DNA from: Acytostelium subglobosum | Lineage: Eukaryota | Assembly (NCBI RefSeq): GCF_000787575.1 | Contig: NW_012236508.1 | Span: forward strand, 139,437 to 174,442 | Length of the DNA stretch: 35,006 nt | Reading direction: 5' to 3' | Shown: piece by piece, positions 8,401 through 35,006 of the stretch | How the letters are laid out: every line of letters starts with the position of its first letter | Position numbering within the stretch: position 1 is the stretch's first letter | The notes under the pieces: generated by a model | What the model saw: the letters and a program-made list of their open reading frames with translations, nothing else | Database searches by the model: none | What the model was told of the DNA's origin: nothing | Made by a program: the position numbers and the translations under genes

Positions 8401-9125
8401 TTGATCCATTCTGTCGGAAACTAGTACGATTGATTGATTGATTGAATGAGTGAGTGAGTGGAACATGTACCTTTGGAGGACTGAACACATACCTGTGTAA
8501 GAGTACCAACTTCAACTTTGGCTTCTCATTGATGGGAGGGGCAATGTTGATGGTGTTGATGAACTTTCTCTTGGGCTTGAATTGATTCTCCATGGTCACG
8601 GGAGGACGCAACTGGATCTCCTCGTGATCACCGTTCGATGGCTCGTGGGCGGATTGTGAAGAGTTGTTCTTGGCCCATGTGAGGTAGGCCTGCTCCTCAT
8701 CGGTCGACTGACGCTTGAGTAGGAAGTTGCGGTGGGGATATCGACCGAATCTCTGGATGGTCTCGAGATGGTCGCGGGCAGATTGCGCGAACCTTTTGTA
8801 GTACTTGAGTTGCGCGGGAAACAGTGAGTCACTGGCCATAGATTCCATCAACTGATGTGCCCTCGTGACAAGCTCCAAGTTCTCAGAGTGCTCCAGAGGG
8901 AGGTAGATAAAGATACGCTCTGGCAATGAGTACATAGAGGCATGATCTTGGTTGGTCGGATTGTCAAGTATGTCCAGTGATAGACGCAATGCAACATCGT
9001 CATACTTGAACATGTCAGCTGATCCACGATACATTGCTCGAGGGAATTGATCAAACAGCAACAACAGTGCGATCCTGCCTCGTTGGAATGATGACCAACG
9101 ATCAAAGATGCCATCCACTATGGCG

Positions 9126-9163
<38 letters not shown>

Positions 9164-9505
9164 ATTGGACTGGTCGATTGATGCAGCTGCCTCTTGAAGC
9201 AGTTGTTCGAATCTACCCTTGTCGAGTGCACGTCTTCGACCGAACCAAAGCTTGGTCTTTCCATTGTATCTTTTGGACCAAGTGGATGTCTTGCCAAACC
9301 AGAATGAATAGACCAGTTCAATATTATTCTGATCATCAATGGACACTTGAGAGTTCAAGTGATTGGCTGGTTCATTACCATTACCAAGTATTAGTTGTTG
9401 TTGTTGAGAGGTATCAACAACTCCTTCACCAGATGATGATGTTGTTGATGTTGTTGTTGTTGTTGATGGTGTCACAATAGCGATGTTGTTATCGTTGGAC
9501 ATCAT
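5498..9505 (-). CDS. Large multidomain protein: N-terminal DUF924 domain, central FSH1/OVCA2-type serine hydrolase, C-terminal RNI-type leucine-rich repeats. Contains at least one in-frame intron (8492..8421) hidden inside the uninterrupted ORF.
   Basis: DUF924 motifs WFGRRRALD...RIALLLLFDQFPRAMYRGS...YLPLEHSENLE...RFGRYPHRNFLLKRQST. FSH1 motifs LLHSFRQNGSILKRSTKKL (after intron removal) and the nucleophile elbow DGIIGFSQGAAF. LRR_RI-type repeats LLLGNNIVGNGGAEAIADYIL..., LYLSCNQLGDAGAAEIAKGL..., LGLSSNCIGPAGARALVEAI. Continuous 1335-codon ORF on the minus strand. Confidence 0.7.
8421..8492 (-). other. 72-nt in-frame intron inside the DUF924-FSH1-LRR gene: donor CACAG|GTATGT at 8492, acceptor GTACTAG| at 8421.
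   Basis: The sequence is intron-like, with (CACT)n(CAAT)n microsatellite content of the kind seen in other introns in this window. Its length is a multiple of 3 with no stop, so the ORF finder read through it. Removing it produces LLHSFRQNGSILK, matching the conserved N-terminal FSH1/OVCA2 motif (LHGFRQNG). Confidence 0.6.
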
Positions 9506-13309: not shown

Positions 13310-15519
13310 ATGAAGCATGCAATCAAGAGACGATTCTTGAAGTTTACAGGCATACTTGGATTCAAAGGTGCACAGGTCAGCAACAATGCACCGAATGATG
13401 AACCTGAGGAGGTTGGTCCGGCAATACCAACAGAGCCAACGTTTACAGAACCAGTAGAGTTGGAACGTGATGAACTAGAACAAAAGATGAATACTTTTAA
13501 GCATTATTTAGCATCACTTGCTCCATCATCATCAACTACCTCTGGGCTGGCTGATAATACAGACCTGTTGACAACACCTTTGGCACCACCAACTTCGCGT
13601 AACATTGCAGCATTATCACTTTCACCATCTGCATCATCGTCGACAATAGACTTTAGCAATGGTAGTCTCTATCTACCCAATGAGTTGATGCACGCCATCT
13701 TTTGCACCGTACTCTCAAACTCCAACATGCTCATTGACACTTCACAACAAAGACAACATCATCAACATCTACATCAACATAATCAACAACAACAAACAAA
13801 TGGAAGTGTATTGGCAAAGGTAAGAGAAAGTGCATCAATCAAACATAGAAGTGATAATGACTGACATGTCAATGATATAGGCAATACCAATAATAAGTGG
13901 ATTGACATGTGCAAGTATAAGTTGCACACAAACAACATCACCGGAGGAGTTGGTGCAACATCTGTTTATTCAGTTACCAGACTTGTCGGCACAGAAACAA
14001 AAGAAATCGTCAAAGCAGAGGACTTCAGTGTATAACAGTGGCGGTGGCGGTGGTGGCAGTAACTCGAGCAACAACCCATTCAGTCCACTTGACCAGATAT
14101 CATCATTCCGATCAAACATCAACAATGTTGTTGGCAATGTCGACTCGCCCTTGGCATTGAGTCGCACAGAGTCAGCTTCGTCATCGGTGCTCCAGCAACA
14201 GATGCTTCAACAACAGCAACAGCAACAACAACAACAGATCCAAGCTGCGACTCCCTATCGCATGGTGGACGTACTGATTGTCGATGACATTGACATTGCA
14301 CCCATGACAACAAGACACACTCTTCTTCAGATGATGGTCTATCGAAAGGTTGCATTCAAGGGCAACACATTTGACACACCGCCCTCGCTTGTAGTCATTG
14401 CTACAGCGTCCTCACTATCCAGCCGTTCATTCCTCAATCAGAGCATTGAACCTTTATCACCACTGATGGTATGTAGACACACCGCGACGAACATGAGAGA
14501 CTTCCTCAAGCTAACAACAATGTGGACTACCTACACAAACAGCTTGATTGCTTCTTTATCAACATCAGATTATATGAACACTTGAGACTACCTCAAGTGA
14601 CTGTACAGAGCGATCCATTAATATCAACCGCTGAATCAAAGTATATACTTGCACCAAGCCGTATCCAACATCTAAGGCAACTAATTTCCAAAGTACACAT
14701 TACACATGTATGTTAATCAGTGAGCTTTTGTTTGTTCACATTTGCGTCACATCTGACTCCAATCAATCAATCATCAACATAGGATATTGAACAATACATT
14801 AGAACTATTATCGTAAACCTTCGTAACCATCCACTCGTTACGTTTGGTCCTTCACCCAGGGCAACTCCAACACTGACTCTTGTTTCAAAGTATGTATTCC
14901 TTTACAATCAGTCTACACTCACTTTGCATGCAACACCTAACATATACATTACCCTAGGACTGTGGCGCTATTGTCTGGACAAAAGTTTGTTACGCCAACT
15001 CATGTGTTGACTGTAGCCACCAAGGTATTGAACCATCGTGTCTTCCTATCAAACCCATTCCCACTGGATCAGAACCAGGGAGACATGCCCAATCAAATGG
15101 ACATGGACACGAACAATGTTGTCTCAACCTTTACACCGATTCAAACATCACCATCCACATCGCCCAGCAGAATGACACCATCGATAATGGTTCACGAAGC
15201 GCCGGGCAGGAACAACCCACTCATGGAGACCTCTGCATCGTTGCCCTGTGTCAAGACTCATAAACGGTCGACATCAATCCTTTCACAAGCGACACATCTT
15301 CCTCCACCACCAATCTCCATCACAGACAACAGAGAAGAGGACTCATCCCAACCCATAACAAATAGCGGCAGCAATTCACTTGCCAAGTCCAACAACAACA
15401 ACAACAATAACCAGGCTGATCAACAGGGATCGATGGCGACTGGAGCATCAACTAACAACGAAATAGACTCATTCACAGTCATCAAGATCATCCTGGAGAA
15501 CCTTTCCCCGCCCATATAA
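13310..15519 (+). CDS. Degenerate MoxR-like (AAA_3 family) AAA+ protein with poly-Q and low-complexity insertions. Proposed exons 13310..13819, 13881..14468, 14543..14640, 14958..15519.
   Basis: Exon joins are phase-consistent: AAG|GTAAGA..ATATAG| (61 nt); ATG|GTATGT..CAAACAG| (74 nt); TCAAA|GTATAT..CCCTAG| (317 nt). The product shows a Walker-B/sensor-1 region VLIVDDIDIAPMTTRHTLLQMMVYRKVAFKGNTFDTPPSLVVIATA (compare MoxR [47 protein letters not shown]), then PLSPLMLDCFFINIRL (compare PLPEAQLDRFLLKLHV), then QKFVTPTHVLTVATKV (compare RDYVTPDDV sensor 2). The Walker A looks degenerate (..NGSVLAK|AIPIISGL across an intron). Confidence 0.5.
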
Positions 15520-17065: not shown

Positions 17066-17104
17066 GGGCAAGGGTAAGGGCAAGGGCAAGGGTAAGGGTA
17101 AGGG
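17066..17104. repeat. Hexamer microsatellite (GGGCAA/GGGTAA) x 6.5 in the intergenic spacer between the SGT1 5' region and the 3' end of family gene B1.
   Basis: Direct reading: GGGCAA GGGTAA GGGCAA GGGCAA GGGTAA GGGTAA GGGTT. It is the source of the spurious Arg/Val-rich ORF 17062..17271. Confidence 0.9.
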
Positions 17105-17105
17105 T

Positions 17106-19296
17106 TCAAAGTTTAATGACCTTATGTTGTGAAGGGTTATTATCGATCATCTCTTCAAGTTCACGCCTCTTCAATATAGCGCCAGTAGTCAGTGAAGTCT
17201 TTCCGTATGAGGCCAAAAGACGATCGCACATTGCTATGATTTTGAGATTGCCTCCACGGCAAGACTTGTGACGGATTGAATTGAGCAATGGGACCAACAT
17301 GTTTGGCTTCCATCCAACTCGTTCAAATGGTGAGGTTGATTCACTGGCACGGTCTCCCTCAAACAAGTAACATAACAATTGGTGATAGTTCCTTTTGGTG
17401 GCGTCGTTGATACGGCGAAGTGATGGAAGATAACGTTTGAGCTGTGATGGACTTGTGCAGTTCTGATACACAACACGGATGATGTCAGTATCTCCTCTGA
17501 CCATAGAATAATCCACCAAGCGTGTCAGTGATTGCGTCTTGTCATTGACAATGTCATCCACACTAATGTATCCCTTGTCAAAGAGATGTGCCAGAACTGA
17601 AGCGTTACAGTTCTCCACCTTGATGATGTTGATTAACTTGTGTTTGGTAACCGAGGCGAGCTGAACAACATAATCGATCGATTCAAAGTCACTTTGCTTG
17701 TAGCAGTTGTTCATCATCGATTCCAAGTCTCTGCAGCTCATGTTGTGGACGACACTGTTTGGGTGACTGTCTTCATCATTGGTGTATGTGGTAAAGTGAT
17801 TGATGATCCACTTAATGACCGATATTGACTTTGATGATGCGATCAACAGCAATCTGACAATATTCCTCGAAGAAAATGACCTTGGTTCTGGATTCACAAT
17901 GTTGGCAAACTCGATGAATGACTCCATTGATATCTTGTTGTCTCCGGGTAATCCAACAACTTCAAGCAAAGAACAAAGGTGATCTATGGTTGGTTTGATT
18001 GTTTGATCCTTGGCCATGATCCTCTTGACTAGCTCCATGTCACGCTTCTCAATTGCACATGACAGAGCTCCACGATAATCTGATATGAGAGTCTTCCATT
18101 TGTCATTGTTACTCTCCTCCAACAACTTATCGACCAACACTTTGTTTCCAATCTTGATGGCATTACCCAAGATATTCTTACAATTAAGAATGATTTGGGG
18201 AATGGCCATCAGTCGCTCAATTAGGTCAACCGACAACAGATTTGAATTGATCACCAAAATGTTGATTGATTTGATTCGATCGGAAGGCAGTTGATCGAGG
18301 ATGAAGTTGGCAACTCCCAAGTGTTGTTGGGACAATGCTACTAAGATGAAATCAGTCGCCATGATTGTTCCAAAAGCCTTTAGCTCATTGAATATCCTCT
18401 CCACCATTGCAAGATGTCCATGACTGATTGAGCACGAAAGGGATGACTCTAGACTGAACGATTGATCTTCTAGGCGAATACGACTGAGTACCAAGTCCAG
18501 ATAGTCCCCTCGTCCACAAGAGCATATTTCATTGATAAATGATTGGACATAGCCTGATCTATCCTCAAACAATCGTGTCATTGCAGTCGATTCGACAAAG
18601 TACCGAAAGACTGATGTAATGTTGTGATTGATCGCGTAGATACATATCCTTAGGTGGTCGTCATATGACAAGATACCATGTTGATCCAGTAACTCGACCT
18701 TTTCCAATGCCCATGGTTTGGTGATCCAGGAAAGGTTCTCGACTTCTGTGTATTTGGAGGTGTCGAGTTTGGCATCACATTGTATGAGCTTGCGAAGGAA
18801 AGATGGATGTTGGACAAAATCCAAGGGGATCTCCAGTCGACCAGACTGAAAAGTGATGAGGACATACTGATCAAACAATCTCTCCCATTCAGGATGAGTG
18901 CATGTCGATACATTCTTGACAAAAGTAGCGCTGCGACGTGCAATAGACATTCTTGTATTGGCCATAAGTACGTCGACAGCTCGTTGGTCACACATCGTAT
19001 AGGCCATATCTAGTAGTTCTGTGTTCACAATAGTGTTGTTATCAAATGTTCGAGAGGTGTATGATTGTAGGAACCATTCCGTTGCACCATACTGGATATA
19101 ATCTATCAAACAATGATTTTCCAACAACTTTGAGCCTTTGATCACTTGATCACTCTCCACACCAAGTGACTTGTGTACCAATCCAACATGTTCCATTATA
19201 AACATTCCAAGCTTCCTGTCTCTGAACACTGAATGGACAGTCGTCTCCAACTGATATGAACATTGTGGATTCATTGCAGTGTCGATCGTATGTAGT
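17106..19296 (-). CDS. Family copy 1, B half (C-terminal exon of the A1-B1 gene); ankyrin-like helical-repeat protein of a lineage-specific family.
   Basis: ORF 17106..19274 extended upstream to the acceptor at 19297/19296. Conserved motifs: CSYQLETTVHSVFRDRKLG, IKGSKLLENHCLIDYIQYGATEWF, CTHPEWERLFDQYV, HPSFLRKLIQ, GWITKPWALE (variant), LAHLFDKGYISVDD..., LKRYLPSL. Confidence 0.7.
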
Positions 19297-19353
19297 CTGA
19301 TGTTTGATTGATTAGCAATGAAATCAATACATGACTGTATGAGTGATACTTAC
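19297..19353 (-). other. 57-nt intron joining A1 to B1: donor CAACA|GTAAGT at 19353, acceptor ACATCAG| at 19297. It removes the apparent TAA stop (19352..19350) of the A1 ORF.
   Basis: Canonical GTAAGT donor overlapping the stop codon; a CTAAT branch-like site; phase 2 to phase 2, giving ...QQQRQ-Q-LHTIDTAMNPQCSYQLETTVHSVFRDRK in frame. Confidence 0.65.
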
Positions 19354-21360
19354 TGTTGTCTTTGTTGTTGTTGATGTTGATTAACCAATGCATCAATCTG
19401 ATCAGTGCATAGCTTGATCACTCTGGTTGCTCCACACTTATAACCTTTGTTCAATATGGAATGAATGGTTCTCAATCGGTGTGAGACCGACATGCCGTTG
19501 AATAGCGGTGAGTTGAAGTGATACTCCAATGAGTGATAGGCATTGTACTTGGCCAGTTGGGTAAGATTCTCGAGACTTGGTCGAACCATTATCTTTGTGT
19601 CTAGATGTTCAAAGATAGAAAGTTGTTGAAGTGATTGGATAAAGTCTGGTCTATCCTGTATTAATGCCTGGTCCACCGCAGATTGTATTGGTACGCCTTC
19701 CAACTGCTCTCGTGTGTACAGCTTGACAACATATTCGACAACGTCCCAATGATCATTGCACATTGCATCATCCAATATTGACGGATCCTGTCTGATATAG
19801 TCCATGTGATTGAGCAAGAATGTTACATCGTCCAATGATCCACATTGTAATAGTTCGCAAGCCATAGTCTTTACCGCATCATCCTTCATTATCTCTGTTT
19901 GCGGGAAGAGTAAACACAATGTCTCGCGACAACACCTCTTGATCGCGTGTCTAAAACATTGAGGACTGTAGGCAATGTTGAGTTGAGTGTGGAGTAGTTG
20001 CATCACCTGGGCCGAGTGGCCGGCCGCCAATATCATTGCCTCATTGAGATAAGTGGGCACCTTGTGTCTACAATTCACAATGAACTGAGAAACGATATCA
20101 GCCGTGATGTTGCTCTCTGGCTGAGCCATTGCCTTTACCATGTTGAAGATTGAAAGACCGCTGAATCTCATCTGTGTTGCTCTGTTGCAGCTGATTGCGT
20201 TTGCCATCTCTTTGGACATCTTTCGACAGGTCTTGGCGTCTAGCTCCACAACCATATTGACATTTGCCTCGACACTGACAAGGTCATCGTGTCGGATCGC
20301 TGCCAACAGTGTGACCCTAAGCTTTGCCGGGTCCATTGAACTTGGATTGGGAGGTGTTTCAAAGCATGCTCGGACGTAATGCTCAGAGTTCTTTGTGATG
20401 ATGGTGTTACCAATGTACTTCTCAAAGATGTACTTGATAAACTCAACATGACCATGGTCCCATGCAACCTTGACTACATGGTTAATGTCATTCCTGAGGT
20501 ACCTGGTGATCCTCACTGATCTCATTAGCAGCTGAAACATTTCAATGTTACCTTGCTTGGCACATTGACAGAGATAGGAGGATATGAGCGGGTCTTCAAT
20601 TACCCATGATGGATGGTTTTCCAAGATGTATTGTACACTGTCCATCTGGTTGTACTTGACACTATGTCTTAGTGCTTCGCTTTTAAGAGTCTTTAGAGAG
20701 TAGAGGCAGCCAAACTCTTCATGAAGCACTTTGAGCATAGCAACACTGATGCCACGACCACGTATAAACTTGAATGGGTCGATGAGCCCATTTGAGTGCA
20801 TATCTATGGTCATGTGTTGGAGTAACAGTCGAACCAGTGACTCGTTGCCTGTGACCACAGCCTTGATGAGACCAGACACACTCAGACATTCGTGGATCGA
20901 CTGCTGAGTGAACGGTGTGAGGTATTGTTGTAGCAGATCAAAGTTGTCACGTCTGAATAGTTCTGCCAAACTCTCAAAGTCAGGACGGATATTTGGATGC
21001 TTGAGCAAATGTTCAAACACCTTTCTGTTGTTGTAGCGCACTGCACTTGATAACAGTTTGTTGTTGTGTGGGTAGTTGTTGTTGTTGTTGTTGTTGTTGG
21101 CCACGCTGTCGAATGTCTCGATGAACATTTGAGTGGCATTGTATTGCAACATCTCTATTAGATTGCCATTGGCGTGTAGCTTGGCACCTTTGATCGTTGA
21201 CTTTATCAATTATATCACCAGCCACAAGCATGCGTTCGTGATGGTACTTGTCATTGGCGAGGTTTATCAATCGACTGTGGATATCACTAACATGTTTAAA
21301 GATCAATCTACACAACACTCTATTGTGAAATACTAAATGAATACTACTATTATCTTTCAT
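19354..21360 (-). CDS. Family copy 1, A half (N-terminal exon of A1-B1). N-terminal 60 codons (21360..about 21215) are out of frame with the rest, so this is a possible pseudogene or a sequence error.
   Basis: Conserved start context ACAAACAAATAATGAAAGAT..SSIHLVFHNRVLCRLIF in the ORF 21013..21384. Downstream, the conserved IKSTIKGAKLHANGNLIEMLQYNATQMFIETF continues in a different frame (ORF 19350..21209), with the break at about 21203-21215. Confidence 0.5.
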
Positions 21361-21525
21361 TATTTGTTTGTTATAATTATCCATGTTTGAATGAATGAAA
21401 AAAGCAAGTTGGGGGAAGGATAAGTCATCATCCGCGGATTTCCATGAATCTCAAAAGATCTATATTATCATTATTCGTTCATTCAATTCAAATATATAGA
21501 GATAATAAAACATAACAAATAAATA
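21361..21525. promoter_or_regulatory. Putative shared bidirectional promoter between the divergently oriented A1 (minus) and A2 (plus).
   Basis: 165-bp AT-rich spacer between the two start codons. All A copies share the start context (A)CAAATAAATAATGAAT(G/A). Confidence 0.3.
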
Positions 21526-23581
21526 ATGAATAGTAATAAGAATAGTATACATTCAGTATTTCACAATCGATTATTATGTCGACAAATATTTAGTCATGTT
21601 CATGATATGCACAATCAATGGAGTCGTCTAACAAAATCATCATTCGATGATAGTGATGACCACCAAATACCTCGCAGGATAAAGTCAACGATCAAAGGTG
21701 CCAAACTTTATGCCAATGGCAATCTAATCGAGATGTTGCAATACAATGCCACTCAAATGTTCATCGAGGCATTCGACAGTGTCGCCAACAACTACCCACA
21801 CAACAACAAACTGCTTCAAAGTGCACTACTCTACAACAATGCAACTGTATTCAAACATCTTTGTAATCACCCAAACATGTTGGTGGACCTTAGAGTGGAT
21901 ACAGAAGACCTCCTGTCCAAACTATGTCAACTTGGCAACTTGGACATGCTCAAACAATACCTCATAGTCTATCCCTATCGTCCATTCCCCGACAGCATTA
22001 TGGCACATCTATGCAATGCCGTTAACACTGGCAACGAACAGTTTGTTCGTCTGCTGCTCCAACACATCACAATCGATCCCGTTGTCGCCAATGAGTTGGT
22101 GAGAGCAACCCATTTCAAACGAGATGCAGTCAAGGTTGGAATGCTCAAAGTGCTACACGAGGAGTTCAACTATCTATTTAGTTTCACTAGCTTATGGGAG
22201 CAAGCACTCTTCAGTTCAATCAGGTGTAATATGTTGGACAGTGTTCAATATATCATGGCTGGCGTGCCATCCTCATTGAATGAAAAAACCTTCACCAATT
22301 GTCTTAAGCTCTGTGCTCAAAAATGCAACATCGACATATTCCAAGTGTTAAGCTCGTCTGTAGTTGGTTCCAAACAACTGAAGGATTGTGATCTTGGAGA
22401 AATGGTCAGACAGGCACGAGATCGTGGACATGAATCATTCATCAAACATCTCTTTGATCATCATGTTGGCAACGACACCATCACTGAGAACTCCGAGAAG
22501 CACATTCGACAGGCACTGGAGTTGTCCACAACTAATAGAGAGGACACCACAATGTCCACCCAGGTCTATTCTGATCACCATGCCACGCTGAGGGAAGCGA
22601 TCAACAAGGATGACATTTTGGGAGTGGAGTCTTTTATACATAATTGTTGCTACATTCATTTGGACCAAATAACCTGCCAAAAAATGTCAGAGCCCATGGC
22701 AAGATTGCTCAGTAGTCCTCGAACACCTACACTGGTCTTCAAAGACTCAATAATCAACATGATCAAGGCCGTTCGCAAGCCAGGCAGCAACATCAATGTG
22801 GACATTGTGTGTCAGTTTATTGATAACTGTGAACATGATTCACACCAGGATTACGACTTTGAAGACGATGGACATTTAATGTATGCAATGATGGAGGCCG
22901 CTAGATTCTCATCGACATTGATGCGCAAGATCAAGGTTCGATTCAATATTCGATACGACAAGCAATGTTTGGAAGAGGCACTTTATTCAAAGTGTCGTGA
23001 GACAATAGAGGTATTGTTTCAAGAAATGGATCATGGTCAGATCGTTGATGCCAAGAGTATAATATTCAATATCATTGGTGAAGAGTCAGGATCATTGGAT
23101 GAGATCAAATTCATTCTGGATCACGTGCCGGTTGAGATAAGGAGCGACCCAAAGATCTGTGAATATGTCATGTACAATAATGATGATAAAGTGATTGAAC
23201 AAGTCATTGACATGTTTACACCAGAGCAATTGGACGACAAGGCGTTGAGTAGTATCTTCACAATGGCAATGATGAAGAACAAACTACACATTGTACAGTC
23301 ACTTCAACAACGATTCGTATCGAATCGATCATCCAATACTCTTGTTGATCGACCTTCGCTCTTGACACTCAGAATTATGGTAGATAACAATTCCCACAAC
23401 ACACTAGAGTACCACCTCAAGTCAGTGACATTCGCCAAAATTCCAATCATCAATCGTTTGCGAACCATTCATTCAATCATGGAGAGTGCTTATAACCTTG
23501 GAATGACCAGAGTGATCAAACTGTGCACTGATCAGATCAAGGCCATCTCAACGACAACACCAATCATTACCCAACAGTATG
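21526..23581 (+). CDS. Family copy 2, A half (intact, 707-codon ORF 21526..23649).
   Basis: MNSNKNSIHSVFHNRLLCRQIF..IKSTIKGAKLYANGNLIEMLQYNATQMFIEAF...RVIKLCTDQIKAI. The likely splice donor G|GTTCAA at 23582 lies upstream of the in-frame stop at 23647-23649. Confidence 0.65.
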
Positions 23582-23672
23582 GTTCAACAAAGATCATTGG
23601 GTGGTTATGCTCATTCACTAACTCATTCTTTCTCAAACAGATATATTGATACACCAATGATTGACGCTCAAG

Positions 23673-25894
23673 AATGTACTGGCCAACGGTTGGATATAGC
23701 ATTTCACTCAGTGTTCAGAGACAGAAATCTTGGAAAGTTCATCATTGAGCAAATTGAGGCAGTACATGATATCATAGGTGAGGATAGTACACTAATGATC
23801 AAGGGTAGAGGCTTCATCTACGATCGTTGCTTTAAAGATTACATTCGTTATGGTGCTTTGGATTTGTTCCACCGGGAGTTCTCTATATCCACATTAAGAA
23901 CTTACCCCAATTCAAGATTACTTGACATGGCGATGGAGCATGATGTGCGATTCATCAAGACCCTTTTGGCAAACCCCATGATGTTGTTAGATGATCACAC
24001 AAGCCTTCAATGTTCATTATTTTGGAACCTATCATTGTGCACTCATCCAGAATGGGAGTGGTTGCTTGAACAGTACATCCTGATTATATCTCAGACATCA
24101 ACACCTGAGCTTGACGACAAGTCAATATCATATATCCGCCATCCATCATTCCTCCGCAAACTCATGCAATGGAATGTCATTATCAAACCTACATCAACAT
24201 CAACATCAACAAGTGAAGAGAATGAACTTGTAAACAAAATGGACAAGGGATGGCTCACAAAGCCATGGGCACTGGAGATGTTCCAACTTCTGGAGCAACA
24301 TTCATTAATAAGTCCGATACTCCGCCAAGGACTATTACTCAAAGCAGCAGAGCACGACATCAAATCAATCATTATATATTCTATCGATCGACAATATATA
24401 TCCAACCCATCATTTGCAAATGAACTTCTAAAGCAATGTTGCAAGTTTGGACGAGTAGACCTCATTGATAGTCTACTTCCATTCCTTCCCGTGCGCCTGT
24501 ACAGCAATTTTTTCAGATACTCATTGCAATTTGGACATCTCGATATCATTGTAAAGCTCCACCCTCACTATGTCCAATCATCCAGCACTGGACACTCCAA
24601 AGACTGGCTAGGGTTGCTCCAAACTCCTTTGGTAAATGGACACTTGGAGGTTGTAGACTATTTGATCATGAATATCCCATCACCAAAGGACGACGACAAT
24701 GATAGGTCAAAGACATTGAGGTCATTTTCAATCTATGAGATTGGCTCAAAGATCATGTCTGTTGACTTGATCAAACGATTGATGACCATTCCCAACATCA
24801 CATTCAACTTTGGCAAGTTGTTGTCACTGGCAATCAATTCCGGAAACAAGGATATGATCACATTTATAATGAAGGACGGAACGGAATCATTGGTGTCAAC
24901 AGGTCATATTATTTGTGCTCTTAAAGTTGGTGATTTGGACACAGCCCGAGCGATCATTGACATGGCGCCAAAGTTGAAGATATCCAGTGATGATTGCTTT
25001 GACTCTTTGATAGATCACATTGGGGAGCCCAACAGCAAGGTCACTGAGGATGTGATCATTGAGTTTGCAACCAAACTTCACAACAACTCCCATCCCTATT
25101 TATTCAAAGTGCTCTTAAAGGCAGCCGCCAAACCATTGTCTGTGATCAAGATGGTGATCAAACATTACACCTCATTCTACGAAGGTGACAAGTTGGTTGG
25201 AGGCAGCATTGGTGATATCATTAACAGAGTGACTAAAGATCAATGGAGACAGATATTAGAGATCAGTGTCAAACGTGATGATTTGGAATCAATCGATTAT
25301 CTTATCCAACTTATGATTTTGTCCAACAACGACAACAACTGGAGGATCAGTTCACTCATCAACTTGGAACATTGCAAAACATCAGTATTGGAGTATTTGT
25401 TTGACAAAGGATACATCAGTGTGGATGACAGGAATGATCGGTTGGCAGGATTGATCGATTGGGCCTGCACCAAAGGACAATTGGACATCATCAAGTGTGT
25501 TCATCAACGTCGTACGACACCATCACAACTTCAAAGACATCTCCCAACACTCAAACCAATTTTGGATGCATCCTTGGTGAACCATCACAAAGTTATCGGC
25601 TATCTGTTTGATGGCAATGATTCAGCATTCAAACGATCACAAGTCAATATCTACATGATACCATTGCTCCAAGCAGTAAGACACGAATCAATCTATTTCG
25701 GCAATCTAATTGTTATTGAGATGTGCGATCGTTTGTCGTCTAGTCAACCTGAACAGACTATCGCTAGTGGACGTGGAGTCAAGAGAAAAGATCATGATGA
25801 TGACCATGTTGATGATGATGATACTACTGCCATAACAAAACCAAAGTCTGCAAGAGTACATAATGGTCATACTTTTTTCGAAGAACACTCCTGA
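23673..25894 (+). CDS. Family copy 2, B half (intact; ORF 23579..25894, overlapping the A2 ORF in another frame).
   Basis: ..CTGQRLDIAFHSVFRDRNLGKFIIEQ..., CTHPEWEWLLEQYI, HPSFLRKLMQ, GWLTKPWALEMFQLLEQH, LEYLFDKGYISVDD, LQRHLPTL. A possible 91-nt intron (23582..23672, CACTAAC branch site at 23625-23631) would join it in-frame to A2. Confidence 0.6.
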
Positions 25895-26002
25895 GAGATA
25901 TCTCAACAGTTCCCTCACAACAACATCCCCCACAATCATCGTGCATTCATTCAATACATTGATCATAGAGATAATAATAACTATAACCCAAACAAATAAA
26001 TA

Positions 26003-27955
26003 ATGAATGATAAGAATAGTATACACTTAGTGTTTCATAATCGATTCTTTCGACATGTCAGTGAGATGCACAATCAATGGCGTAGTCTAGCAACATCATC
26101 GTCATCAGAGTATGATAATGATGACAACCATGATCATGATGATGACGACCAAGTACCTCATATAAAGTCAACGATCAAAGGTGCCAAACTACATGCCGAC
26201 GGCAATCTCATTGAGATGTTGAGATACAATGCCACTCAGATGTTCATCGAAGCGTTCGACAGTGTCGCCAACAACTACCCCATACTCCGTAATATTCAAC
26301 AACACAACCGTATTCAAACATCTATGTAAACACTCAAATATGATAATGGACATGAGGAATCAACTCCAACATATCTGTCAAATTGGCAACCTTGTCATAC
26401 TCCAGCTCTACCTCACAATCAATACATATCGCCAAATACCAAACGACACCGTCTCACACCTTCATCTCGCCATTGACACTGGCAACGAACAATTTGTTCG
26501 TCTGCTTCTCCAACATCTCACAATTGACGACAAGGCCAACGACAGAATGACGTTCAAAAGATGTGGTGTCAAGGTTGGCATGCTCAAAGTACTGCACGAG
26601 GAGTTCAACTGTCTCTACAGAATCAAACAACTTTGGGACGTTGCACTCTTGCGCTCGGCCAGGTGTAACATGGTGGACAGTGTTCAATATATACTTGATA
26701 ACCTTCCCTCGGATTATGATCAAAAGTCAATCGGTGTCCTCCAGAGTTTTCTTCAACAATGCGCCACGTCAGGTTCATCCAACATGCTCCAAGTGTTGAG
26801 CCAGTCAACTGCTGGCGCCAAACTACTCAAGACCTACGACAACTTTGGAGGACTCGTTCAACGTGCGCTGGAGAATGGCCATGAATCATTTGTTGAGCAT
26901 CTCAAAGCCATCCCCCTGCATAGAACCAGCTTTCAACAGAATGAACATTTCACACTTTTGACCTCCATCCTCAAAGATGACTTGGTTAGCTTCGAGGAAT
27001 TAATTGGACAATGGAATGATCATGATTTCGAGTCGGACAAAAAGGTTTGCCAAAGAATGTCGGTGGCGATGTCAACATTGATAAGCAGTCCTCGAACCAT
27101 ACCTCTGACTTTCTACAATAGTTCATTGCTCAACATGATCCGTGCCGTTGGTAAACCGGGCAGCAATATCACCGAAGATATTGTTTGCCAGTTCATTGTT
27201 AACTGCAATCATTTTGGGCATGACTATGGATATAGCGAGGATTCTGACTACCCTGCGTTTTTATATGACATGTTGACCATAGCTGCGGGATTCTCCGATG
27301 ACAAGGTGATGCGTCAACTCTTCGATCGGTATGGCGAGCACTATGACAAGGACAGTTTGAAGATGGCAATTCAATCAAAGTATCACAAGACAGTGATGTT
27401 TCTATTACAACGACTCGATAGGAATGTGATCAACACTGTCAAAGATAGTCTATTCAGTCTCATTGCCGATGGATCATACTCTTTGGACGATATCAAGATC
27501 ATTCTGGACCGCGCCAATGAACTCAAGACTGATACTTTCATATGTGATTGGGCTGCGTTCCATCAACATGACGAAGTGTTTGAGTATGTTATCTCAACTT
27601 TTACATCAGATCAACTTGATGAACTGGTATTGGACCGGATCATATCGCATGCAATGACCTCAAACAAACTAAACATTGTTCAATCACTTCAACGACGATT
27701 CGGGTGGGTACGTGGTCCAAAGCTCTGGACACTCCTAGATATGGCCGAACACAATGCATACAGCACACTAGAGTACCACTTTAAGTCATCTACATTCACC
27801 AATATTCAAATCATACATCGTTTGCGAACCATTCACTCTATCTTGGACCAAGCTTATCAACTTGGATTGTCACGAGTGATCAAACTGTGCTCTGATTATA
27901 TCAGGGCTTTGGCAATCCCATCAACAACAACATTACCATCCAATCATCAACAAAT
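26003..27955 (+). pseudogene. Family copy 3, A half, with an internal deletion of about 31 nt and a frameshift near 26278..26290 relative to A2 and A4 (ORFs 26003..26329 and 26229..27959).
   Basis: ..AFDSVANNYP in one frame, then YSVIFNNTTVFKHLCKHSNM in the +1 frame. The paralogs read ANNYPHNNKLLQSALLYNNATVFKHLCNHPNM continuously. Confidence 0.6.
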
Positions 27956-28023
27956 GTAAGTTATCTAACTGAACTTAAAGATGGATGTAGTTACTCTCAT
28001 TTACTAACTTCACTCACCCACAG
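27956..28023 (+). other. 68-nt intron joining A3 to B3: donor CAAAT|GTAAGT at 27956, TACTAAC branch at about 28011-28017, acceptor CCCACAG| at 28023. It spans the apparent stop of A3.
   Basis: Textbook GTAAGT donor, TACTAAC branch and CAG acceptor; phase 2 to phase 2 giving ..HQQ-M-MIICLYNYIRYNAMEWFLKAF. Confidence 0.7.
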
Positions 28024-30088
28024 GATGATCATTTGCCTGTACAATTACATACGATATAACGCAATGGAATGGTTCCTAAAGGCATTCTCCGTTTGGAACA
28101 ACCCACAAGGTTCACAACACAACATTGCTAGAGTTGGCAATCAATCATAACATTCGATTTGCCAGTGTACTTTTGACCAACCCGATGTTGTCATTCAAAG
28201 AGTCCAATGTCGCCCAATATCTATTGGAACGCATCGTCTCATCCAGAATCAATCAGAGTGGTTGCTTGATCAATACATCACGATCACCACTCAGAACTCA
28301 TCACAAGATGAGATCGGTCTCACCACCGTCTCATTGATCAAACATCCATCATTCCTTCGCAAACTAATTCAATTGGGAGCCAAACCATCCAAGCTCATAT
28401 CCACCGACACCAATGTTAATGAGGACCACATCTCATACATGAACGAGGGATGGCTCACCAAACCATGGGCACTGGAGATGTTCCAACTTATGGAGCAGCA
28501 CTCAATCATCGGTCCACATCTCAAACTCCAATTGTTATTAGGATCAATAGAACACAACATCACATCAATTGTCAATCATTGTGTTGATGGTATTCGACAA
28601 ATGAATGATGCGTCAAGAGGACGATTGTTAGATCAATGTTGCAAGTATGGACGTGTTGAGCTGTTTGACATTATACGCTCACTCTTCCCCATGACGGAGA
28701 ATATCATATATTCGGCACTGTTTATCAGCGCTGCAAAGTATGGACAAATGGACATACTCCAAAGGGCCCACTCACTCTTGGATCCCGACAATCTCCCAAC
28801 ACCAAGTAGCTTGTTCGAGTGTACAAAGTCAGCATTGGCCAAAGGACATCTGGATGTCTTCAACTTCATAATCGACATAATCACATCATATTATGAACAA
28901 CACAAGGATCAGGAGATACTACTCGACAGATGTTTGGTCAATAGTATTGATTCAAGTATCATGTCGGTGGACTTGGTCCAACGAGTGAAGGCACATTCCA
29001 ACTTTCTCTTGGACTTTGGACTGTTGTTGGCCGAGGCCATCAAATATGGAAACAAACCAGTTATCAATATGTTGATGAATGACCCATCAACAACACTATC
29101 AATCACTCATGTTGAGAAGGCGTTTGAGGCAGGAGATTTGGAATCAATCAGAATGATCATTGACAAGGCACCAAACTTGTTCACTTACGATTATCTTAAC
29201 TTTTATCAAATCGAAACAGTGGAGAAGTCATTTTCTTCATTTTTTGATAAAATCGGAGTTCCTGGTAGCTTGGTCACTGAGGATGTGATTCTAGAGTTGG
29301 TCACCATACTGTGCAAATTGGACAAAACCATGCGTATATTTGGAGAGACTCGAAATATCTTTCAAAAGGCAGCGACTAAATCACTGTCTATGATTAAAAT
29401 GGTGATCAATACCTTCAAACCAGTCATTGACACCGGGTCAATTTATGATTTCAGAACAGTAATTGAGAGCAGTGTCAAACGATCCGATTTGGAATCACTC
29501 GATTATCTGATTGGTCTGGCAATCACATCGTACAAACCAAGGAGATACGATCCGAAGACACCAAAGATCAGTGAGCTCATCAACTTGGAACATTGCAACA
29601 AGTCAGTGTTGGAGTATCTTTTTGACAAAGGACATATCAGTGTCGATGGCAAAGAGGATGATTTGGAATTATTGATGGATTGGGCCTGCACCAATGGACA
29701 TTTGGACATTATCAAGTGTGTTCATCAACGATGTGCCACACCATTGCAACTTCAAAGATATCTGCCAACAATCCAACATATTTTGAATGCATCCTTCTCA
29801 AACCATCATCAAGTGATCAGTTATCTATTAGATGGCAAAGATTCGGCGTTCCAACGATCACTGGTCAAGTTCGACATGATACCATTGCTCCAAGCAGTAA
29901 GATTCCAATCGATCAAATATCAAGGCAATTTAAAGATCATTGAGATTTGTGATCGATTGTTGTCCAATCTTTCAATATCCCATACTCGTGGAGTCAAGAG
30001 ACGAGACCAAGATGATATTGATGATGAGGTTGTCAGAAAGTCTGCCAGGTCATCACTCCACAAGAATCCATATCTTTTCCAAAAATAG
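28024..30088 (+). pseudogene. Family copy 3, B half. At least three frameshifts between 28095 and 28262, and a deletion of the conserved N-terminal HSVFRDR...IKG segment. The remainder is ORF 28262..30088.
   Basis: Homology to B2 continues across three reading frames: ICLYNYIRYNAMEWFLKAFSVW / TTHKVHNTTLLELAINHNIRFASVLLTNPML.. / IYWNASSHPE / SEWLLDQYITI. One shift coincides with a 4-nt CAAT-type insertion at 28246-28252. Confidence 0.6.
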
Positions 30089-30159
30089 TCAACTTCAAAA
30101 GTGAGTGGATGCCTCGAACATTCATTCATAGATAATCATACATATACAACAAATAAATA

Positions 30160-32252
30160 ATGAATGGTGATGATAGTAATAAGAATAGTATACATTCAGT
30201 GTTTCACAATCAATTGTTATGCAAACAAATCTTAAGAGATGTCCACGATATTCATAGTCGATGGTCCAACAAAGATGGTAATTTGGATGATGATGATCAA
30301 GTACCTCATATCAAGTCAACGATCAAAGGTGCCAAGCTATATGCCAATGGTGATCTAATTGAGATGTTGCGATACAATGCCACTCAAATGTTCATCGAAG
30401 CATTCGAACGTGTCTCCAACATCACGTACCCATACCCTCACATAACAAACAACAACAATAACAACCTATTATGGTTCTCAATATATATCAACAATGTGAC
30501 CATATTCAAATATCTGATCAATCATCCAAACAACTACAAATATACAATGTTCATTGATACTACAACAAAAGAACTACTTGAAGTTATATGTTATCATGGC
30601 AACACTGAGATGCTTCAACAATACCTCGAGATCACAGCCTACCGTCCACTACCCAGCGACACTTTGTCCAACCTCACTCTTGCCATGGACACTGGAAACA
30701 TACAATTTGTACGTCTCATGCTCCAACACCTCATCACCATCGACTTAACCGTGGTCAACCAGCAACATCAAAAGATCAAACCAACTTTCAATCAACGTCG
30801 CTCCGTCAAGGTTGGAATGCTTACGATGCTACACGAGGAGTTCAACTGTCTATTCAAACTCACTGAGCTCTTCAAAGCTGCCCTGTTGCACTCAACCAAG
30901 AACAACATGTTGGACAGTGTTCAATACATAATGGACAACATGCCTTCAGACATAGAGTTCCACGAGAAGGATCGAACATTCCCTGCATGTCTACAACATT
31001 GTGCTGTGACAGGTGATATCAACATGTTCCAAATGTTTAGCAAGTCGACTGCTGTTGGTGCCAGACTACTTTTGGAGTATAAATTGGATGACATGATTGA
31101 GGAGGCGCGTGATCGTGGCCATGAATCATTCATCAAACATCTCTTTAAGCATCATGTTGGCAATGACACAATCACAGAGTCTTCTGAGATCTGTATACGA
31201 GACTCATTAACGTCAACAGGAGATAGTCTAAGTGTCACATTGTTGTCTGCGATCCGTAACAATGACACTTTGAGTGTAGAGACACTTCTTACTCAGGAGG
31301 ATGAAGAGGATCATCCTTTCTGTGAGTTGGATGCCAAGACCTGCCGAACAATGTCAAAGGAAATGGCTACATTTATCAGCGCCCCACGTGCACCTGGACC
31401 ATCATTCACTTTCCACGACTCATTGTTCAACATGATCACTGCCGTTGGCAAGCCGGGCAGTAACATCACCGATGACATTGTATGTCAGTTCATTGAGAAC
31501 TGCACACACGAGTCACTTTGGTATGACATGAGCTATGGAATCACAGGCTACATTAGTGAAAACCTGTTGCTCATCGCTGGTAGCTCATTAACAATCATGC
31601 AGAGGCTCATGGATGTATTATACCTACGGTTTGATCATAACAGTCTGGTTGCGGCAATTCAATCAAAGCGTCAAGATACAATATCATTCCTATGTCAAGT
31701 GTTGGTAGAGGACAGAGAGGAGATTGAACATCCTTTAGTCAAGGATGCAGCATTCAATTTCATAAAAGATGCATCATCTTTGGAGAGCATCGAGTACATA
31801 TTGGAGAAGTTGGGTCTCAAGGATGATCCAAACATATGTGTATGTGCCCTGTACAATGACCGACCAGAAGTGTTTGAGCACATCATCAACATGTTCACAC
31901 CAGACCAGATTGGTGACTGTCTGCTTAATGATATAGTATCATGTGCAATGATCAAGGATAATCTACAAGCTGTACAGTTACTTCAACAACGATTCGGACC
32001 ATCAGACAGTGTACGATCAGGGCAATCGGCACTACTGTCGATGGCTCAATACAGTGCCCATCACACTCTCGAGTTCTACTTTGCCTCTCCATTATTCATC
32101 AACATGTCAGTCACCAATCGATTGCGAATCATTCATATAATCATTGACAAAGCCTACGATTATGGTATCACTAGGGTGATCAAGCTGTGCACTGATCAGA
32201 TCGATTCGACACAATCACTCATTCAACAACAACAACAACAATATCATCCCTT
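30160..32252 (+). CDS. Family copy 4, A half (intact; ORF 30160..32352).
   Basis: MNGDDSNKNSIHSVFHNQLLCKQIL..IKSTIKGAKLYANGDLIEMLRYNATQMFIEAF...RVIKLCTDQIDS...QQQQQYHPL followed by a GTACGT donor at 32253. Confidence 0.7.
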
Positions 32253-32319
32253 GTACGTGTATCAATCCAACATCCATCACTCATTCAATGTACTAACTTC
32301 AATCCCCACCTTCACCCAG
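32253..32319 (+). other. 67-nt intron joining A4 to B4: donor CCCTT|GTACGT at 32253, TACTAAC branch at 32291..32297, acceptor CACCCAG| at 32319.
   Basis: Of all AG dinucleotides before B4, only this acceptor keeps the B4 frame; it lies 22 nt after the branch A. The B4 ORF has no ATG upstream of its conserved HSVFRDRK motif and begins at a TTG, consistent with it being an internal exon. Confidence 0.75.
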
Positions 32320-34426
32320 ACTTCAATCCAAGACTTGTTCACGTCAGTTTGAGTCATTGGTTCACTCAGTGTTCAGAGACAGGAAGGTTGGCATGCTCAT
32401 TATGGGACAAGTTGGAGTGATTCACAAGTCACTGGGTGTGGAGATCATCAAAGGGGCACACTTATTGGACAATCATTGCCTCTCAGACTACATCAAATAT
32501 GGAGCGTTCGAATGGTTCATCAAAGCATACTACTCCGCCAACTCCAAGACCATCTCCTCAAGAAGGACGAACAATGATCTCCTTGTACGGGCATTCCAGA
32601 GGCTTGACACCCGCTTCATTGATCTCCTCCTGGATGACCCCTTGATGAACATCAGCGAACAAACAGACCATCAAGTATTCTTTTGGAGGTTGTCAATATG
32701 TACACATCCAGAATGGGAGAGATTGTTTGATCAGTATGTCAAGATCACTGCACCACTCAAGCTTGACCGGCTCACTCTTGCATCGATCCGACATCCATCA
32801 TTCCTCAACAAACTCATTCAAAGTAATGGACTCATCAAACTCCCAACCCTGGACACTAGTGATGGCGAAACTTACAATCAATGCGTTAATATGATTGCAG
32901 AGGGATGGCTGACCAAACCATGGGCATTAGAGATGTTCCAACTGATAGTCAAACACTCACTCATGACTCCAGAGTTCCCACAACTATTGATCAAGGCGAT
33001 CAACCACAATGTATCATCAGTGATCAGATGTTGGGTTGATTCTCTAGAAGGACCCGATGAGAGACTGAACAATATCTTGGATCAATGTATATATGGAGAT
33101 TTGGAGCAGCTTCAGATGATTCTTCGCGTAGCTATACCAACCAATATAACATATTACAATTTGTTTCAGACAGCCATCTGTCACAACAAGATTGCCATTG
33201 CTCAATGGTTGTGGAAAGACCGCCTGCCCAATCTATCATACAAGATTGATCCATTGGATTCGTTTGGCACTGCTTTGAAGTGTGGACACTTGGAGATGTT
33301 TGACTTCCTGTGCACCATCCAACAACATGCATCAACATTCGATCCCAACAAATACTCGGATGTGCAGAACATCCATCCAAGCATCCTATCAACCGAGCTG
33401 ATCGAGCGACTTATGGCACATCCCAACATCAAGTATCCCTTTGGCCTGGTGCTGGGCCAGGCGATCCAGTCTGGCAACAAGGCAGTTGTCGATATGTTGT
33501 TGAATGATGAGCGACTCACTCTATCAAGAGAGAGAACGTATGATTATAAGGATGCCGTAATGAATGCTATTGATGTTGGTGATGTTGATGTGATCAGACA
33601 GATATTCAAGGTGGACCCAACAGTCAGACTATACAATGGAGAAGGATTACTACCATTGTTCAATCACATTGGTTTGCCTGGCAGCATGATCACCGAGGAT
33701 GTGATCATTGAATTGGCCGACAAACTCATCAGCCGACCATCACTATGTTTGAACGTACAGAGTCTACCCTTGTTGCTCTGCAAGGCGGCAACCAAGTCAC
33801 TATCATTGATCAAGATGGTCATCAATAACTTTACAACATTCAACAACCACCAAGGTGATGATGACGATGTCTGTGTCGTGCACCAAATGACACCAAACAT
33901 GTTCAAGGGAGTGATTGATGTTTGCATCAAAAAAAGCGATACAGAGTCAATTGACTATTTGATACATCTGGCCATCACTGCTTCCAAACAACAACATGTC
34001 CACATCCATGAACTAATCAACTTGGAGAGTTGCAACAACACGTCAACACTGGCACACCTCTTTGACAGGGGATATATCAGTATCGATGATGACAAGAGTG
34101 ATGCTTTGCCAAGATTGGTAGATTGGGCTTGCTACACTGGTGACTTGGACATTATGAAGTTTGTCCATCAACGATGTTGCACAACAACACAACTACTTCG
34201 ACACCTGCCATCATTCTTCCACATCTTCACTGCATGTTCCAAATTCAATCATCACAAACTTCTCTGTTATATGTTTGAAGGTGATGAATCACCATACAAT
34301 CGAGTCAAGTTTGATATAATCCCATTGCTTATAATTGTACGTCATTTATCTGTTCATAATGGCTACCTAAAGATTGTTGCCATGTGTGATCATATAATCT
34401 CATCCAATCAAACAACTACAAAATAA
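32320..34426 (+). CDS. Family copy 4, B half (intact; ORF 32357..34426).
   Basis: ..LQSKTCSRQFESLVHSVFRDRKVGMLIMGQ..IKGAHLLDNHCLSDYIKYGAFEWF, CTHPEWERLFDQYV, HPSFLNKLIQ, GWLTKPWALEMFQLIVKH, LAHLFDRGYISIDD, LLRHLPSF. Confidence 0.7.
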
Positions 34427-34608
34427 ATAAAATATCTATTATTATTGGAACTAATCCAAAAAAATATCTTGGGATTTTTGCAATCTGTGTTCGAAGAAAA
34501 TCGAATTAAGATTTTACCAGTGCAATCACTTCAAGTTGGGTACCAACCTCCAACGCTCTTATTAATGTTTATACTAGCGATAGAGATAGAGATAACATAC
34601 CAAGCATA

Positions 34609-35006
34609 ATGGACAACAACCTTCGAAAGGTGTTTGGAAACAAAGTGTTGCGAACGACAGTCTTCCAACATCTCTGTGATATTCACAAACGATGGATCAG
34701 TCTATCATCACTCAAACAACAACAACAACAACAACATGATCAAGAACGAGAACAATCATGGATGATAAAGTCAACGATCAAAGGTGACAAGTTGTTGGCA
34801 GAAGGCAGTCTTGCACGATTTCTCAAGTTCAACGCGACTGAATGGTTCATCAAAGCATTCGACAGCTTTACACCAAAGTGTCACCAACTCACATCACGTC
34901 TCCTCTTTAAATCATTCAAATATAACAATATCCGAGCATTCAATCATATACTTGACAATACCAACACTGATCTTGATGATGATATCACACCCAGCCAGCT
35001 GACAAA
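34609..35006 (+). CDS. Family copy 5, A half, 5' part only (runs off the window end).
   Basis: MDNNLRKVFGNKVLRTTVFQHLCDIHKRW..QQQQQQ..MIKSTIKGDKLLAEGSLARFLKFNATEWFIKAFDSF.. carries the family N-terminal motifs. Confidence 0.6.
   Translation, partial: MDNNLRKVFGNKVLRTTVFQHLCDIHKRWISLSSLKQQQQQQHDQEREQSWMIKSTIKGDKLLAEGSLARFLKFNATEWFIKAFDSFTPKCHQLTSRLLFKSFKYNNIRAFNHILDNTNTDLDDDITPSQLT

Follow-up and report, generated by a model that had tools for sequence, protein, structure and literature searches.

A tandem array of genes for probable double ankyrin-repeat solenoid proteins in Acytostelium subglobosum

We analyzed a 35,006-nucleotide stretch of contig NW_012236508.1 (hereafter the window) from Acytostelium subglobosum, a social amoeba of dictyostelid group 2. 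Positions 17106–35006 are filled by about 4.5 tandem copies of a 4.1–4.4-kb unit: the first copy lies on the minus strand, and three more and the beginning of a fifth follow on the plus strand. In every unit, an A half precedes a B half. The array genes carry the locus tags SAMD00019534_100320 to 100360 of A. subglobosum LB1, the genome of which comprises 31 Mb with 55% A+T and 12,722 genes (PMC4334915).

Self-BLASTN of the window returned 31 off-diagonal matches of 65–88% nucleotide identity, nearly all within 17.1–35.0 kb. They are spaced by about 4.2–4.5 kb on the plus strand and are inverted for 17.1–21.4 kb and direct from there on. A previous sequence-only reading of this DNA had described a repeated unit of about 4.3 kb in at least 4.5 copies, with one minus-strand copy standing head-to-head with plus-strand copies. 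The repeat-structure check that it proposed, run here as self-BLASTN, showed the repeated units to be present, and together with the alternating long open reading frames (ORFs) it confirms both the unit and its orientation. The sizes given for the two halves also agree with the ORF lengths in the window. The units and their parts are as follows (aa, amino acids).

17106..21384, minus strand: unit 1 (A1-B1), NCBI model SAMD00019534_100320 (P0020)
21209-19354, minus strand: coding part of the main A1 ORF (19350-21209 in the ORF list, 619 aa)
21384 to about 21216, minus strand: N-terminal piece of A1, out of frame with the main A1 ORF
19296-17106, minus strand: B1 coding part (ORF 17106-19274, 722 aa)
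21385..21525: head-to-head spacer of units 1 and 2, 141 bp, AT-rich, between two start codons
21526..25894, plus strand: unit 2 (A2-B2), intact, spliced product 1434 aa
21526-23576, plus strand: A2 coding part (ORF 21526-23649, 707 aa)
23641-25894, plus strand: B2 coding part (ORF 23579-25894, 771 aa)
26003..30088, plus strand: unit 3 (A3-B3), pseudogene
26003-26329 and 26229-27959, plus strand: A3 ORFs, 576 (+108) aa
28262-30088, plus strand: B3 ORF, 608 aa
30160..34426, plus strand: unit 4 (A4-B4), intact, NCBI model SAMD00019534_100360 (P0005), spliced product 1399 aa
30160-32252, plus strand: A4 coding part (ORF 30160-32352, 730 aa)
32320-34426, plus strand: B4 coding part (ORF 32357-34426, 689 aa)
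34609..35006, plus strand: unit 5, first 132 codons of A5, truncated where the window ends

The start of A5 carries the N-terminal module MDNNLRKVFGNKVL...IKSTIKGDKL...FNATEWF. The GC content falls to 0.37 in 21001–22000, around the spacer between units 1 and 2, which presumably serves as a divergent promoter.

The relationship between the A and B halves is defined by a short sequence found at each of the four A/B junctions, with the features of a spliceosomal intron.

19353-19297, minus strand: junction intron of unit 1, 57 nt, phase 2, GTAAGT...CTAAT...CAG
23577-23640, plus strand: junction intron of unit 2, 64 nt, phase 2, GTATGG...CACTAAC...CAG
27956-28023, plus strand: junction intron of unit 3, 68 nt, phase 2, GTAAGT...TTACTAAC...CAG
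32253-32319, plus strand: junction intron of unit 4, 67 nt, phase 2, GTACGT...TACTAAC...CAG

All four split a codon after its second base and have the canonical GT...CTAAC/CTAAT...AG signals. In unit 1, A and B lie in one frame, and the sole stop between them is a TAA inside the intron donor; in units 2–4, the frame of B differs from that of A, and the intron has precisely the length that makes up for the difference. Once spliced, units 1, 2, and 4 each have one uninterrupted reading frame, and the spliced product of unit 1, read from 21209, has 1348 aa and a single terminal stop. The NCBI models of units 1 (100320) and 4 (100360) use exactly these introns. At other loci of the genome, about 45 paralogous models of 1,100–1,500 aa encode A followed by B, with a linker constant at 46–51 residues. 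Judged from these sequence features, A and B are the halves of one gene, and the proposal of the sequence-only reading that the two are spliced together is supported by the predicted phase-2 introns at all four junctions and, for units 1 and 4, by the NCBI models.

The only serious alternative is that A and B are separate, alternating paralogous genes co-duplicated as a pair, the "introns" being short intergenic spacers. Several observations weigh on this side and against one gene per unit. Every A ORF ends in a stop codon, which in each unit lies within or just past the intron donor; in B1 and B2, the N-terminal motif is closely preceded by an in-frame ATG; NCBI annotates A2 (100330) and A3 (100350) as stand-alone genes ending with A; and splicing in units 2 and 3 is predicted from sequence, not observed. 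Separate A and B products, or intron-retention isoforms giving an A-only product, are possible. However, donor, branch-point, and acceptor consensus sequences occur at all four junctions, and the junction lengths of 57, 64, 68, and 67 nt bring B into frame with A in every unit. B4 lacks an ATG of its own ahead of its N-terminal motif, a spacer of 60–100 nt is too short for a terminator plus a promoter, and the many paralogues modeled as fusions share a linker of constant length. Over 703 pairs of 38 fused proteins, the identities of the A half and the B half correlated with r = 0.90, which suggests that the fusion preceded the expansion and that units were later duplicated whole, although the same co-divergence would be expected of a co-duplicated gene pair. 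Altogether, we regard two separate genes as unlikely and retain the reading of one gene per unit.

The public annotation accordingly splits or truncates several family members. The A2 ORF is 100% identical to the hypothetical protein SAMD00019534_100330, encoded on a 502-kb contig, a model that covers A2 only, starts at an internal Met, and lacks B2, and 100350 (P0002) covers A3 without B3. Many paralogues likewise appear under-merged or truncated (P0011, P0014-16, P0020, P0021, and P0024 among them), and numerous models begin only at the internal Met of "MLQYNATQMF" (position 40 of the A hidden Markov model, HMM), thereby omitting the conserved SIHSVFHNR motif upstream. On another contig, SAMD00019534_113340 (P0053) is a 2463-aa model with the architecture A-B-A-B; it represents either two tandem units merged by the gene predictor or a true double-length member.

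A and B are also homologous to each other, as had been claimed from the sequence. Pairwise BLASTP detects this weakly, in the N-terminal module only (E 1e-4 to 1e-7) plus one weak C-terminal match. The decisive evidence comes from profiles: hhalign aligned the A profile (13 sequences) with the B profile (16 sequences) at a probability of 99.9% and an E-value of 4.8e-31 over 563 collinear columns with 15% identity, and the A and B HMMs cross-match collinearly. The profile alignment pairs the N-terminal caps with each other, "KPGSNITxDIVCQFI" with "GLPGSxVTEDVIIEL", and the C-terminal "LEYHF...RVIKLCTD" with "YLFxG...IxMCDR"; the N- and C-terminal motifs quoted in the sequence-only reading are present in all copies of the alignment. 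This collinear homology implies that the gene arose by an ancient internal tandem duplication or by the fusion of two tandem paralogues. The predicted protein of about 1,400 residues comprises modules A (~685 aa) and B (~715 aa) joined by a linker of about 50 residues, the coding sequence of which is interrupted by the phase-2 intron. Each module has its own conserved N-terminal cap F/H-x-V-F-x-N/D ... IKG ... Y-N/G-A-T-x-x-F and a C-terminal cap LEYxF ... RVIKLCxD. A profile search with the family-specific N-terminal module gave no match in Pfam or the PDB.

Both modules resemble ankyrin repeats (ANK). Pfam Ank_2 matches A1, A2, and A4 with 39.7, 31.1, and 33.8 bits, respectively (gathering cut-off 27.3), and Ank_4 matches B2 with 29.5 bits (cut-off 22.7); B1 and B4 alone score below the Pfam ANK cut-off. 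Among the family members used for the profiles, ANK families match 11 of the 13 A-type and 11 of the 16 B-type sequences. Searched against PDB sequences, the B profile found ankyrin-1/2, DARPins, FEM1, and NOMPC with E-values down to 1e-25. We modeled both halves with AlphaFold2: the B4 model (pLDDT 83, pTM 0.66) has 43 helices of about 10 residues in 689 aa, and the A2 model (pLDDT 77) has 41 helices of about 10 residues in 683 aa. Both are all-alpha with paired helices, amounting to about 20 helix hairpins per half, and their top Foldseek matches in the PDB are 24-repeat ankyrin solenoids (8cs9, 4rlv, and 7uzu). Two points speak against this assignment: the TM-scores to these real ankyrin solenoids are only 0.25–0.36, with PPR and other alpha-solenoids scoring nearly as well, and the sequence-level ANK matches cover only part of each half. 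Both profiles and models nevertheless suggest that A and B are probably divergent ankyrin-repeat solenoids, and the Pfam and profile searches that had been suggested for the "ankyrin-like" repeats support that description.

No Pfam domain besides the ANK families was found in six window proteins and 29 family members, nor did the Pfam scans reveal any catalytic domain. The hydrophobic pattern of the N-terminal motif is superficially similar to an F-box, but Pfam and the PDB give no support for it, and we rejected this assignment; no F-box, F-box-like, or PRANC domain was detected in whole proteins (E<=1) or in eight isolated N-terminal modules (E<=10). Neither a signal peptide nor a transmembrane segment is evident from the sequence, no dedicated predictor having been run.

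The copies in the array are old and have diverged considerably. BLASTP identities are 36–46% between A halves (E down to 0) and 32–44% between B halves (E down to 1e-152), and over the HMM match columns of the alignments, which were made with hmmalign for each family half, the window copies share 40–49%. The earlier estimate of 40–70% identity was therefore too high. Paralogues share 32–49%, and values of 60–92% are reached only by the short N-terminal module of about 40 residues, IKSTIKGAKL...YNATQMFIEAFDSVAN. Units 2, 3, and 4 are mutually nearest relatives (A2-A4 49%, A2-A3 47%, B2-B3 47%), and unit 1 is about equally far from them and from paralogues on other contigs. This divergence also bears on the question of whether the repeated units could be an assembly artefact, i.e., a mis-expanded repeat. 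Such artefacts give near-identical copies, whereas these copies differ at 25–35% of nucleotides and 51–68% of residues, with distinct indels, which excludes this explanation. The general risk of a draft assembly, as illustrated by one paralogue elsewhere that is flagged "LOW QUALITY PROTEIN", leaves it a negligible probability.

Between the intact window units, the proportion of synonymous differences (pS) is 0.59–0.69 and the synonymous distance (dS) is 1.15–1.89, compared with a proportion of nonsynonymous differences (pN) of 0.35–0.40. Synonymous sites are thus near saturation, which indicates an ancient array; the sequence-only reading had called the family rapidly evolving, and we found no evidence of rapid evolution. 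The overall pN/pS is well below 1, and the sequences point to overall purifying or relaxed constraint. In some 40-codon windows, pN is about equal to pS (e.g., columns 481–560 and 621–660 for unit 2 vs. unit 4), a pattern indistinguishable from relaxed constraint. As a test for diversifying selection we discarded dN/dS, since the ratios are unreliable when synonymous sites approach saturation (pS 0.6–0.7), and they offer no usable evidence of positive selection.

The N-terminal module of the A half departs from this pattern.

21090-21206, 21678-21800, 26162-26278, 30310-30424, and 34763-34866: N-terminal module (about 40 codons) of the A halves

Its DNA is 83–87% identical among units 1, 3, and 4 and about 73% identical to that of unit 5, and its pS is 0.23–0.39 as compared with 0.6–0.7 in the rest of the gene. 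The low value may reflect local gene conversion or constraint at the nucleotide level.

Some of the copies have decayed. In A3, five residues of the N-terminal motif are deleted, and the reading frame is shifted, with a further deletion, near 26285. B3 lacks the HSVFRDR...IKG module and has an in-frame stop near 28146 as well as an out-and-back frameshift at 28092–28235, where HMM positions 79–126 match another frame. By these several disabling lesions unit 3 is a pseudogene, so the pseudogenised members mentioned in the sequence-only reading are real at least in this case. Unit 1 has a single frameshift near 21215–21260 that splits the N-terminal motif from the rest of the gene, and it may have decayed, too. 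As a caution in both cases, errors in the assembly might in principle account for the frameshifts of units 1 and 3. The pattern of tandem duplicates that diverged independently (32–49% identity) and include both intact and decayed copies matches the birth-and-death evolution proposed earlier, with the low pS of the N-terminal module as an exception.

The array belongs to a much larger family. An exhaustive HMMER scan with B4 of 1.84 billion representative proteins returned 79 hits, 49 of them below 1e-30. All the strong matches that we looked up are from A. subglobosum, on at least 10 contigs, and most have the A-B architecture. A profile search with the B alignment, limited by its word index, likewise returned A. 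subglobosum proteins only. By these searches, the family has at least 70 members, found almost only in A. subglobosum, with a median pairwise identity of 29%. Locus tags, taken by themselves, suggest further clusters at 100320-101400, 023010-026710, and 113340-113820. Weak single-module relatives, nearer to B than to A, occur in Cavenderia fasciculata (DFA_01536, 772 aa) and Heterostelium album (PPL_07238, 580 aa). The lineage specificity claimed for the family is therefore upheld for the strong hits but not in the strict sense of an orphan family, as the N-terminal module is shared with these two proteins. When DFA_01536 was used as a query in the same kind of word-index-limited search, it returned itself alone and no paralogue. 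The two proteins plausibly represent the ancestral single-module form. By full-text search, the family is not described in the genome paper (PMC4334915) or the other literature searched; it is undescribed, with members annotated as hypothetical proteins, and would account for about 0.5% of the gene models of A. subglobosum (at least 70 of 12,722; gene total from PMC4334915).

We also considered whether the array is foreign, its ANK genes having been acquired from an intracellular bacterium or a giant virus. In a viral library, the entries that match best in structure are indeed long ANK proteins from Pithovirus, Catovirus, Pandoravirus, Mimivirus, and poxviruses, and large tandem ANK families are carried by giant viruses and intracellular bacteria. 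However, the viral matches have 10–16% identity and low TM-scores, as expected from a shared generic ANK fold; the HMMER scan found no strong relative outside A. subglobosum; and the distant relatives with the family-specific N-terminal module are dictyostelid. The array genes contain spliceosomal introns with host-type signals, and the GC content of the array (0.37–0.46) is not distinct from that of the flanking host genes, which include the housekeeping genes MVP, RPL10, and SGT1. A foreign origin is accordingly very improbable, and duplication within the host lineage is preferred.

The left half of the window contains ordinary host genes, encoding the major vault protein, ribosomal protein L10/uL16, a DUF924-FSH1-LRR protein, a low-molecular-weight phosphatase, a MoxR-like AAA fragment, and SGT1. 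The major vault protein gene (1487-3986, plus strand) is split over the overlapping frames 1487-2119 and 1830-3986, with Vault-repeat matches in both, presumably because of an intron or frameshift near 1830-2119. The ORF at 5498-9505 (minus strand) is uninterrupted over 1335 aa and combines DUF924, a "bacterial" domain of unknown function, with an FSH1 serine hydrolase and C-terminal RNI-type leucine-rich repeats, an unusual combination. ARAGORN called a 91-nt tRNA-Gln(CTG) at 15013-15103 (minus strand) inside an ORF (14962-15519) with a match to AAA-lid on the opposite strand; either the call is a false positive, or the tRNA contains an intron and lies within a gene or an intron. Where the array ends on its outer side, a (GGGTAA/GGGCAA)n microsatellite at 17066-17105 (6.7 copies, period 6/18) adjoins the B1 stop codon; its motif cannot be obtained by permuting the telomere repeat TTAGGG.

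Taken together, the region likely holds, in about 4.5 tandem copies, a multi-copy gene for a double ankyrin solenoid of the A-B type, duplicated within the lineage, diverged, and partly decayed. The ancestor would have had a single module, as the proteins of Cavenderia and Heterostelium still do, and would have been duplicated and fused to A-B before the expansion. Whole A-B units would then have been duplicated many times, both nearby, probably through unequal crossing-over, and onto other contigs, with the copies diverging to 30–50% identity and some of them decaying. The array is a clean example of such steps in family evolution, i.e., internal module duplication or fusion, amplification of whole units in tandem, and decay of some copies. 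Its notable features are the double-module architecture and the conserved intron that marks the fusion point of A and B.

By analogy with other long ankyrin solenoids, the A-B proteins are most likely non-enzymatic protein-binding scaffolds or adaptors; this role is deduced from the predicted fold. The conserved caps might provide a framework or partner shared across the family, and the divergent repeats might offer binding surfaces specific to each paralogue. The role in host interaction or self-recognition mentioned in the sequence-only reading is pure speculation. A more elaborate version, which we consider rather improbable, is that the family forms a diversified intracellular recognition repertoire, in which the ANK surfaces of the paralogues bind different ligands, such as bacterial, viral, or non-self targets, the caps couple to a common effector, and retention or splicing of the junction intron switches between A-only and A-B isoforms. 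If true, social amoebae would possess an innate-immunity or kin-recognition system of a new kind. As it stands, the array is a real but fairly ordinary lineage-specific ANK expansion, which would matter more only if a role in recognition or defence were demonstrated.

Among known systems, one of the closest parallels is the membrane-binding domain of ankyrin-R/B with its 24 ANK repeats, as indicated by the profile match at E 1e-25, the Pfam Ank_2, Ank_3, and Ank_4 families, and the all-alpha hairpin solenoid models. Unlike ankyrin-R/B, the A-B proteins lack spectrin-binding, ZU5, and death domains; their repeats are highly degenerate, with only parts of the halves scoring as ANK and a TM-score of about 0.35; and they have two tandem solenoid modules, each with family-specific caps unmatched in Pfam and the PDB. 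STAND/NLR receptors with ANK sensor arrays differ by their NACHT or NB-ARC domain, which is absent from the six window proteins and 29 family proteins scanned. The allorecognition genes tgrB1 and tgrC1 encode secreted or transmembrane proteins with IPT/TIG domains and form a polymorphic head-to-head pair. The array resembles them only in the head-to-head layout of units 1 and 2, whereas its proteins have no IPT/TIG match and a predicted all-alpha solenoid fold. Within the same genome, the FNIP/B-box family (381 members) and the delta-endotoxin-domain family (27 members) are likewise lineage-dependent expansions, with domains different from those of the ANK family (PMC4334915).

The dictyostelid proteins DFA_01536 and PPL_07238 share with the A-B family the N-terminal module FFLVFRN...MKG...YLRYGRTEEF and the internal motif "ILSxELLERLxxHPN", and the B HMM matches them at 5e-22 and 3e-17, respectively. 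They differ in having one module of 580–772 aa instead of two, and as whole proteins they match B4 in phmmer at no better than about 1e-4.

Lineage-specific ANK expansions are common in protists and their viruses, with the ANK families of Mimivirus, Pandoravirus, and Pithovirus and the "21.1" proteins of Giardia as named examples. Like these, the A-B family consists of dozens of divergent ANK-only paralogues, often in tandem, with no enzymatic domain, and its structural matches to viral ANK proteins reach an E-value of 3e-6. It shows no specific sequence relationship to the viral families (10–16% identity). Viral ANK families often carry an F-box or PRANC domain, and the A-B proteins differ from such adaptors of the poxvirus and giant-virus type in having neither. 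What sets the A-B family apart from all these protist and viral ANK families is its fixed A-B double-module architecture with the conserved junction intron.

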